Shown here: one piece after another, positions 5,938 through 6,146 of the stretch | Layout: each line of letters starts with the position of its first letter | Numbering within the stretch: the stretch's first letter is position 1 | Origin: a virus | Lineage: Duplodnaviria > Heunggongvirae > Uroviricota > Caudoviricetes | DNA: 6,146 nucleotides | Virus record (IMG/VR): IMGVR_UViG_2706794681_000014 | Direction: 5' to 3' (one strand) | Position numbers and translations under genes: made by a program | The notes under the pieces: generated by a model | The model's database searches: none | What the model was told of the DNA's origin: nothing | What the model saw: only the letters and a program-made list of their open reading frames with translations

Positions 5938-6021
5938 TTACTGTATCTGCGCGGATTGCCGGGCTTCATGGGAGTGGAAAGCACCCGTGCACTTTCCTGG
6001 TCCACAGGCAGAAAATGTCCG
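5938..6021 (-). pseudogene. possible 3' remnant of a phage gene interrupted by IS2
   Basis: The minus-strand frame is open from the IS2 junction (6021) to TAA at 5938-5940, encoding RTFSACGPGKCTGAFHSHEARQSAQIQ. Only 27 codons, so chance openness is not excluded. Confidence 0.25.
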
Positions 6022-6146
6022 TAGACTGGCCCCCTGAATCTCCAGACAACCAGTATCACTTAAATAAGTGATAGTCTTAATACTAGTTTTTAGACTAGTC
6101 ATTGGAGTACAGATGATTGATGTCTTAGGGCCGGAGAAACGCAGAC
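6022..6146 (+). mobile_element. IS2 (IS3 family) left end, truncated by window edge
   Basis: TAGACTGGCCCCCTGAATCTCCAGACAACCAGTATCACTTAAATAAGTGATAGTC... matches the IS2 left inverted repeat and leader from memory, with a few mismatches. It is followed by the OrfA start. Only about 125 bp of the roughly 1.3-kb element is in the window. Confidence 0.75.
6113..6146 (+). CDS. insC: IS2 transposase OrfA (InsC), 5' fragment only
   Basis: GGAG then 5 nt then ATG at 6113; encodes MIDVLGPEKRR..., matching the IS2 OrfA N-terminus as I recall it. Truncated by the window end. Confidence 0.6.
   Translation, partial: MIDVLGPEKRR

Follow-up and report, generated by a model that had tools for sequence, protein, structure and literature searches.

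The stretch of DNA analysed here (the window, 6,146 nucleotides of IMG/VR record IMGVR_UViG_2706794681_000014) very probably carries an old, fixed IS2 scar in what remains of a degraded lambdoid prophage of the Shigella sonnei lineage, and no active regulatory element. Judging from its encoded protein, the gene interrupted by IS2 is that of a phage DnaB-type replicative helicase. Public S. sonnei genomes, the 2005 Ss046 reference among them, already contain the identical junction.

Results and Discussion

The left end of IS2

IS2 begins at position 6022 of the window on the plus strand (TAGACTGG...) and continues to its last base (6022-6146, TAGACTGGCCCCCTGAATCTCCAGACAACC...), as had been proposed in a preliminary description of this DNA. 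Of these 125 bases, 123 match nt 1-125 of IS2A of Escherichia coli K-12 MG1655 (mobile element 381260-382590, insC1 from 381351), our reference for the element; the mismatches are at window positions 6053 and 6108. The 42-bp left inverted repeat (IRL, 6022-6063, plus strand) is identical to that of MG1655 IS2A at 41 of 42 bases; it is followed by P_IRL, a weak inward extended -10 promoter (about 6069-6077, plus strand; position per PMC3299598), and then by the start of orfA, which is the succession that characterizes a left terminus of IS2 (IS3 family). The numbering in the window agrees with the published account of the IS2 ends, which describes a 42-bp IRL and a weak, inward P_IRL with an extended -10 that begins with TGAT at nt 48-51 (PMC3299598).

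The ATG of orfA (insC) is found at 6113 on the plus strand, corresponding to IS2 nt 92, and the first 11 codons of the gene are inside the window, which stops at IS2 nt 125. The genes of the phage operon are all on the minus strand, in agreement with the earlier observation that OrfA is opposed to them. The element was also correctly placed upstream of the nin/rusA/Q block; it adjoins a helicase remnant located 5' of orf85-rusA-Q. The identity, start coordinate and orientation of this IS2 end are right, with a match far above chance.

The interrupted gene

On the phage side of the junction, the minus strand holds the 3' remnant of the helicase gene (5898..6021), consisting of 40 codons and a TGA (5898-5900). 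The 40 codons translated from 5898-6020 (GHFLPVDQESARVLSTPMKPGNPRRYSNKRTDSSKMERFF*, i.e. GHFLPVDQ...MERFF) match positions 424-463 of the intact L005 prophage helicase, a protein of 463 aa with a DnaB_C domain (PF03796), at 40 of 40 residues, and the IS2 insertion point falls within codon 423 of 463. It is the parent gene that qualifies as a DnaB-type helicase, the 40-codon remnant being without the catalytic part. When window 5500-6146 was searched by megablast in 5,426 complete E. coli genomes, there were many matches; the long ones all end at 6022, one base beyond the last phage base (6021), and the matched genomes run on past 6021 into a gene annotated in RefSeq as 'replicative DNA helicase'. 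In NZ_CP065613.1, the helicase gene ends at the equivalent of window 5898. The same megablast search yielded no junction-spanning record among the 5,426 genomes, and an exact search for a junction 30-mer in the GTDB representative genomes returned no match.

The preliminary description stated that a phage gene was truncated at the junction, and this is indeed the case, the last 40 codons of the helicase having been severed from the rest of the gene. The comparison with uninterrupted homologues that it recommended identifies the disrupted gene, which it had left unnamed, as the replicative helicase. It had pointed to another minus-strand frame, ending with a TAA at 5938-5940; this frame is open for 27 codons as reported, but, unlike the helicase frame, it is not a gene remnant, and was rejected as such on account of giving no helicase alignment at E<=100. 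Since the real remnant frame occupies 5898-6020, the remnant reaches 40 bases to the left of 5938, where the preliminary description had begun. As the target is the replicative helicase, the insertion strikes phage replication itself.

A further minus-strand ORF of 53 codons (5898-6059) has a GTG start inside the IS2 left inverted repeat, continues in frame through the 40-codon helicase remnant and terminates with it, at the TGA overlapping the start of orf85. Were this ORF transcribed, it could keep translational coupling to orf85.

Genes downstream of the junction

The stop of the helicase remnant (TGA, 5898-5900) shares bases with the TTG start (TTGA) of an 85-aa ORF without assigned function, orf85 (5644..5901, minus strand). 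The exact orf85 protein is encoded directly 3' of the helicase in many public chromosomes, and a Pfam scan gave no significant match to it. The next gene is an intact rusA (5270..5644, minus strand), coding for a Holliday-junction resolvase of 124 aa (PF05866 RusA, E = 1.8e-16) and as long as its counterpart in the intact prophage L005. It is followed by the gene for antiterminator Q (4443..5273, minus strand; PF03589 Antiterm, E = 1.2e-54), whose 3' end enters a run of undetermined bases (N-run 4162-4442). Down to 4443, the window Q is 100% identical to the 284-aa Q gene of S. sonnei. Q is found as variants of 273 aa (L005) and 284 aa (the S. sonnei locus L002) in otherwise near-identical prophages; when the flanks of the N-run are compared by eye (window about 4443-4470 and 4125-4161), this split resembles a one-base difference in the length of an A-run just 5' of the stop.

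Three tRNA genes, partly N-masked, are located downstream of Q (2212-2459, minus strand): Arg-tct, Arg-tcg and a gene with a CAT anticodon. The latter is called Met by ARAGORN, and its homologue in NZ_CP065613.1 is annotated as tRNA-Ile. A 111-aa ORF (486-821, plus strand) matches the annotation 'anti-adapter protein IraM' in related prophages and is referred to here as iraM-like. The late genes are encoded on the other strand, and the genes of the related prophages belong to the PmrD family (PF11183); the 111-aa window protein, scanned directly against Pfam, gave no match above threshold.

Relatives with the identical junction

Two exact-protein lookups, using as queries the 85-aa ORF and a 62-aa DUF1737::IS600 fusion ORF from the other end of the window, retrieved 11 chromosomal loci (7 + 4) with the identical junction, including that of CP000038.1, the reference genome of S. 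sonnei Ss046 (PMC6562246). These relatives are 99.9-100% identical to the window over 1-1684 and 4443-6146, and the junction (6021/6022) lies inside the block 4443-6146, where identity is 100%. The junction-bearing chromosomes carry ipaH-type genes as well as IS21; of three Shigella reference sets (PMC7373316), that of S. sonnei 53G is the only one to list IS21.

In the orientation of the window, the order in 11 of 11 loci is the helicase remnant, IS2 nt 1-~157, IS21, IS2 nt 203-1331 and GTCCG, the right end of IS2 reading ...GGGGCAAATCCA / GTCCG / TTATAAAAACG. On the 3' side of GTCCG, all 11 have 36-37 bp of helicase, then the left end of an IS600 (TGAGGTAGCC...), and then unrelated tail-fibre and ipaH remnants. 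A target duplication of 5 bp is the expectation for IS2. The left copy of GTCCG is at window positions 6017..6021 and the right copy is seen in the 11 loci; because GTCCG is single in the uninterrupted target (...AAAATGTCCGTTATAAAAACG...) of prophages L005, L010 and L001 (NZ_CP065613.1, E. coli FDAARGOS_944), and stands on both sides of IS2 in the relatives, it forms a clean 5-bp target duplication. The IS2 right end and the duplication, both of which the preliminary description suggested looking for in a longer sequence, are thus present in the 11 loci with the identical left junction, and the right inverted repeat (IRR) with its direct target duplication is found there beyond the window's end.

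The IS21 nested in IS2 has an istA of 390 aa and an istB of 265 aa, and is annotated as IS21 in the E. coli matches. At the site of its insertion it lacks about 50 bp of its own left end, and IS2 lacks nt ~158-202; the orfA of IS2 is split after about nt 157, and orfB (301 aa) is intact. An autonomous element has an intact orfA-orfB with its programmed frameshift, and this arrangement is lost in the relatives. Since orfA is split by IS21 and nt ~158-202 are lost, this IS2 copy is non-autonomous in the relatives and cannot make its own transposase. The window ends 125 bases into IS2, so that the structure past 6146 is extrapolated from the relatives; given their 100% identity over 4443-6146, the genome of the window probably has the same structure. 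A literature search on six of the locus accessions returned no match.

IS21 has also been found inside IS2 elsewhere. Besides the S. sonnei case (L002 7651-9725), where it is at IS2 nt about 157/203, the nesting was observed in two further contexts unrelated to the S. sonnei locus (L021 2501-4575 and L022 2498-4574); an E. coli plasmid has it at IS2 position about 860-873 and an E. coli chromosome at about 442-445. As the IS2 positions differ in L021 and L022, these are independent events and are silent on whether IS2::IS21 moves as a unit. The repeated nesting could reflect a preference of IS21 for IS2, or the abundance of both elements.

The other boundary and the middle of the window

At the opposite end of the window, positions 1..98 are the right end of an IS600 (plus strand), identical at 98 of 98 bases to copies annotated in L001, and present in L005. 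At 98/99, IS600 cuts a DUF1737 gene that marks the start of the late region, and this IS600/DUF1737 junction is identical in all S. sonnei loci retrieved. The 62-aa ORF employed as a query (52-240, minus strand) is the fusion of the two. In the S. sonnei loci the remnant is flanked by two IS600 copies of the same orientation and, with the second copy 36-37 bp past the IS2 right end, direct repeats of IS600 enclose the entire piece of ~7 kb. Bordered by IS600 at one end and IS2 at the other, the phage DNA of the window (99-6021) is a small IS-bounded fragment. The two ends of the window come to within 2 and 27 bases of those of a set of short-read contigs from this locus (L029; 3,844 bp, 16 samples), about 125 bases into IS2 and IS600. 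This suggests that the window is a complete contig or scaffold bounded by IS elements, with nothing further in its own record.

The chromosome of S. sonnei Ss046 (CP000038.1) and others like it share with the window the helicase/IS2 junction, the IS600/DUF1737 junction and both IS2 base differences from K-12 IS2A, whereas a region of ~2.3 kb containing a methylase gene and four N-runs (1685-1942, 2003-2213, 3351-3599 and 4162-4442) occur in the window but not in these chromosomal loci. The extra DNA lies between Q and the iraM-like gene (1685-4442) and comprises a 65-aa gene (3720-3917), an N6/N4 methylase (about 2500-3600) and a divergent allele of the tRNA region. As this middle part is absent from every S. 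sonnei locus retrieved, the genome of the window is not simply one of those loci. A lookup of the 65-aa protein showed that lambdoid prophages of E. coli commonly have the Q-65aa-methylase layout; among the matches of that lookup it never occurs beside this IS2. The N-run 4162-4442, at the 3' end of Q, is flanked by a 23-30-bp direct repeat of that 3' end. The middle of the window may be a real recombinant or an artefact of assembly or scaffolding; either way, the IS2 junction at 6021/6022 is unaffected.

A probable decayed prophage remnant and the alternatives

IS2 entered codon 423 of the helicase gene and duplicated GTCCG. In the relatives, IS21 has entered the orfA of IS2, and the rest of the helicase has been lost at an IS600 together with replication, immunity and pR. 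A second IS600, in the same orientation, cuts the late region at 98/99. We infer the order to be IS2 first, followed by IS21 and the IS600-associated deletion. What is left, the orf85-rusA-Q-...-iraM-like segment, would be orphaned from phage early transcription and form no part of an inducible phage. An inducible lambdoid prophage has contiguous immunity, replication, Q, lysis and morphogenesis genes, and that contiguity is missing here. Intact prophages of the kind (L005, L009 and L010) retain Rha-type regulators and replication initiator genes as well as lysis and terminase genes, and within 10 kb of the remnant, on either side, no other parts of the intact prophage L005 were found in the relatives. 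Any expression of orf85-rusA-Q would presumably come from weak adventitious or read-through transcription, with istAB of the nested IS21 as a possible source. All Shigella carry massively expanded sets of IS1, IS2, IS4, IS600 and IS911, and IS expansion, pseudogenisation and genome reduction are well documented in them (PMC7373316).

Two alternatives that question either the element or the ordinary nature of the scar have very little in their favor. That the IS2 match is an isolated short piece not followed by the rest of an element, a case that the preliminary description itself had raised against its own reading, is the least credible of all: there are only 125 IS2 bases in the window and the IS2 frame is broken by IS21 after about nt 157 in the relatives, but IS2 resumes in these with nt 203-1331, a correct IRR, GTCCG and the next 36-37 helicase bases, from which we conclude that a whole IS2 was inserted here. 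The right junction and the duplication rule out the short fragment for the relatives. Hardly more credible is the model of a polar block, in which IS2 would cut rusA/Q off from the delayed-early transcription driven by pR, in a prophage that is inducible in other respects, and so lower the expression of late genes and cargo. It is true that IS2 sits between a replication gene and orf85-rusA-Q and is opposed to the phage operon, and that in L005 and phiP27-like phages the helicase and Q-side genes follow one another head to tail on a single strand, stop codons overlapping start codons, as in an operon. However, upstream of IS2 in 11 of 11 loci there are only 36-37 bp of helicase before IS600 and unrelated DNA, and the helicase gene itself is destroyed by the insertion. 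No pR, repressor or replication module was found within 10 kb in the 11 loci with the junction, so that no delayed-early transcription is left to block, and the proposal that IS2 separates the nin region from pR transcription loses its object. Likewise, the IS600 that cuts the late region at 98/99 leaves no lysis/morphogenesis operon for induction, and no inducible phage; the region being an IS-bounded remnant, the question of an altered inducibility of the late operon and its cargo does not arise.

A third alternative, that IS2 or the IS21 nested in it transcribes into orf85-rusA-Q and gives RusA and/or Q, deserves more attention than the other two, and yet we regard it as unlikely. There is a precedent in E. 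coli K-12, where the insertions rus-1 (IS2) and rus-2 (IS10), upstream of the silent rusA of prophage DLP12, activate its transcription (PMC1636454, PMC10956419), and orf85, rusA and Q are intact in the window. Moreover, in the S. sonnei loci the nested IS21 has its istA and istB genes co-directional with orf85-rusA-Q, the IS21 right terminus (...GCGTTGACA) holds a perfect -35 hexamer pointing outward, and the consensus scan detected no terminator-like site between IS21 and orf85; taken together, these features make read-through into rusA/Q possible. Against this, the outward -35 of IS2 lies in IRR, and IRL has only a weak inward promoter (PMC9330008, PMC3299598). The IS2 end that faces rusA/Q in the window is IRL, so that the known IS2 promoter mechanism is inapplicable here and the outward hybrid promoter envisaged in the preliminary description is not upheld. 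The TTGACA of IS21 has no acceptable -10 at a spacing of 16-18 nt, and a scan of both strands for sigma-70-like consensus promoters, over window 5200-6146 and over L002 from istB to rusA, returned 0 sites; at the level of sequence, such an absence is no proof of transcriptional silence. A terminator scan of the junction region of the window and of L002 gave a single terminator-like match, inside rusA and at chance level. The IS21 junction, besides, is about 35 bp past the end of the window and is carried over to the window's genome from its relatives. A literature search on the classical work on IS2 orientation and polarity returned nothing usable. The narrower proposition that the IS21-in-IS2 of S. 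sonnei transcribes across the IS2 left end into orf85-rusA-Q, either by istAB read-through or from the outward TTGACA, appears slightly less likely again, and an old scar in a decayed prophage remnant is the reading that we retain.

Comparison with known systems

The window resembles rus-1 in that IS2 is located upstream of rusA in a defective lambdoid prophage in both. The rus-1 and rus-2 insertions, however, were selected as activators of rusA, whereas the window is without a detectable promoter-like site; in the window IRL is directed toward rusA, and this comparison leaves the orientation of rus-1 aside. The IS2 fusion promoters of ampC, acrEF and neoR take their -35 from IRR, pointing in the direction of the transposase gene (PMC9330008). 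The element is the same, but in the window the transposase direction leads away from rusA/Q.

The prophage of E. coli FDAARGOS_944 is of the same type as the window, to which it is 99.7-99.8% identical over 4454-6022, and its helicase gene (L001 6399-9057) has also been inactivated, independently, by an IS3-family element, IS600. It differs from the window in the IS involved, in the insertion site, which is >1 kb further upstream in the helicase gene, and in having kept its other prophage genes (replication, repressor, lysis, terminase). The same helicase-orf85 module is present in phiP27 and Stx1a phages, with 88-89% DNA identity over the window stretch; in contrast to the window, these phages have Q directly after orf85 and no rusA listed.

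Significance

The locus is an ordinary one among the hundreds of IS scars that mark Shigella genome decay. The main use of the present analysis is to correct its annotation, the disrupted gene being, on the basis of its conserved 3' end, a phage replicative helicase read in another frame than the one proposed. A modest interest remains in the transcription of the orphaned rusA and Q from nested IS elements. If such transcription did take place, an orphan prophage fragment would constitutively supply RusA and/or a Q capable of acting in trans on the late operons of other resident prophages, and the locus would parallel in nature what rus-1 is in the laboratory.
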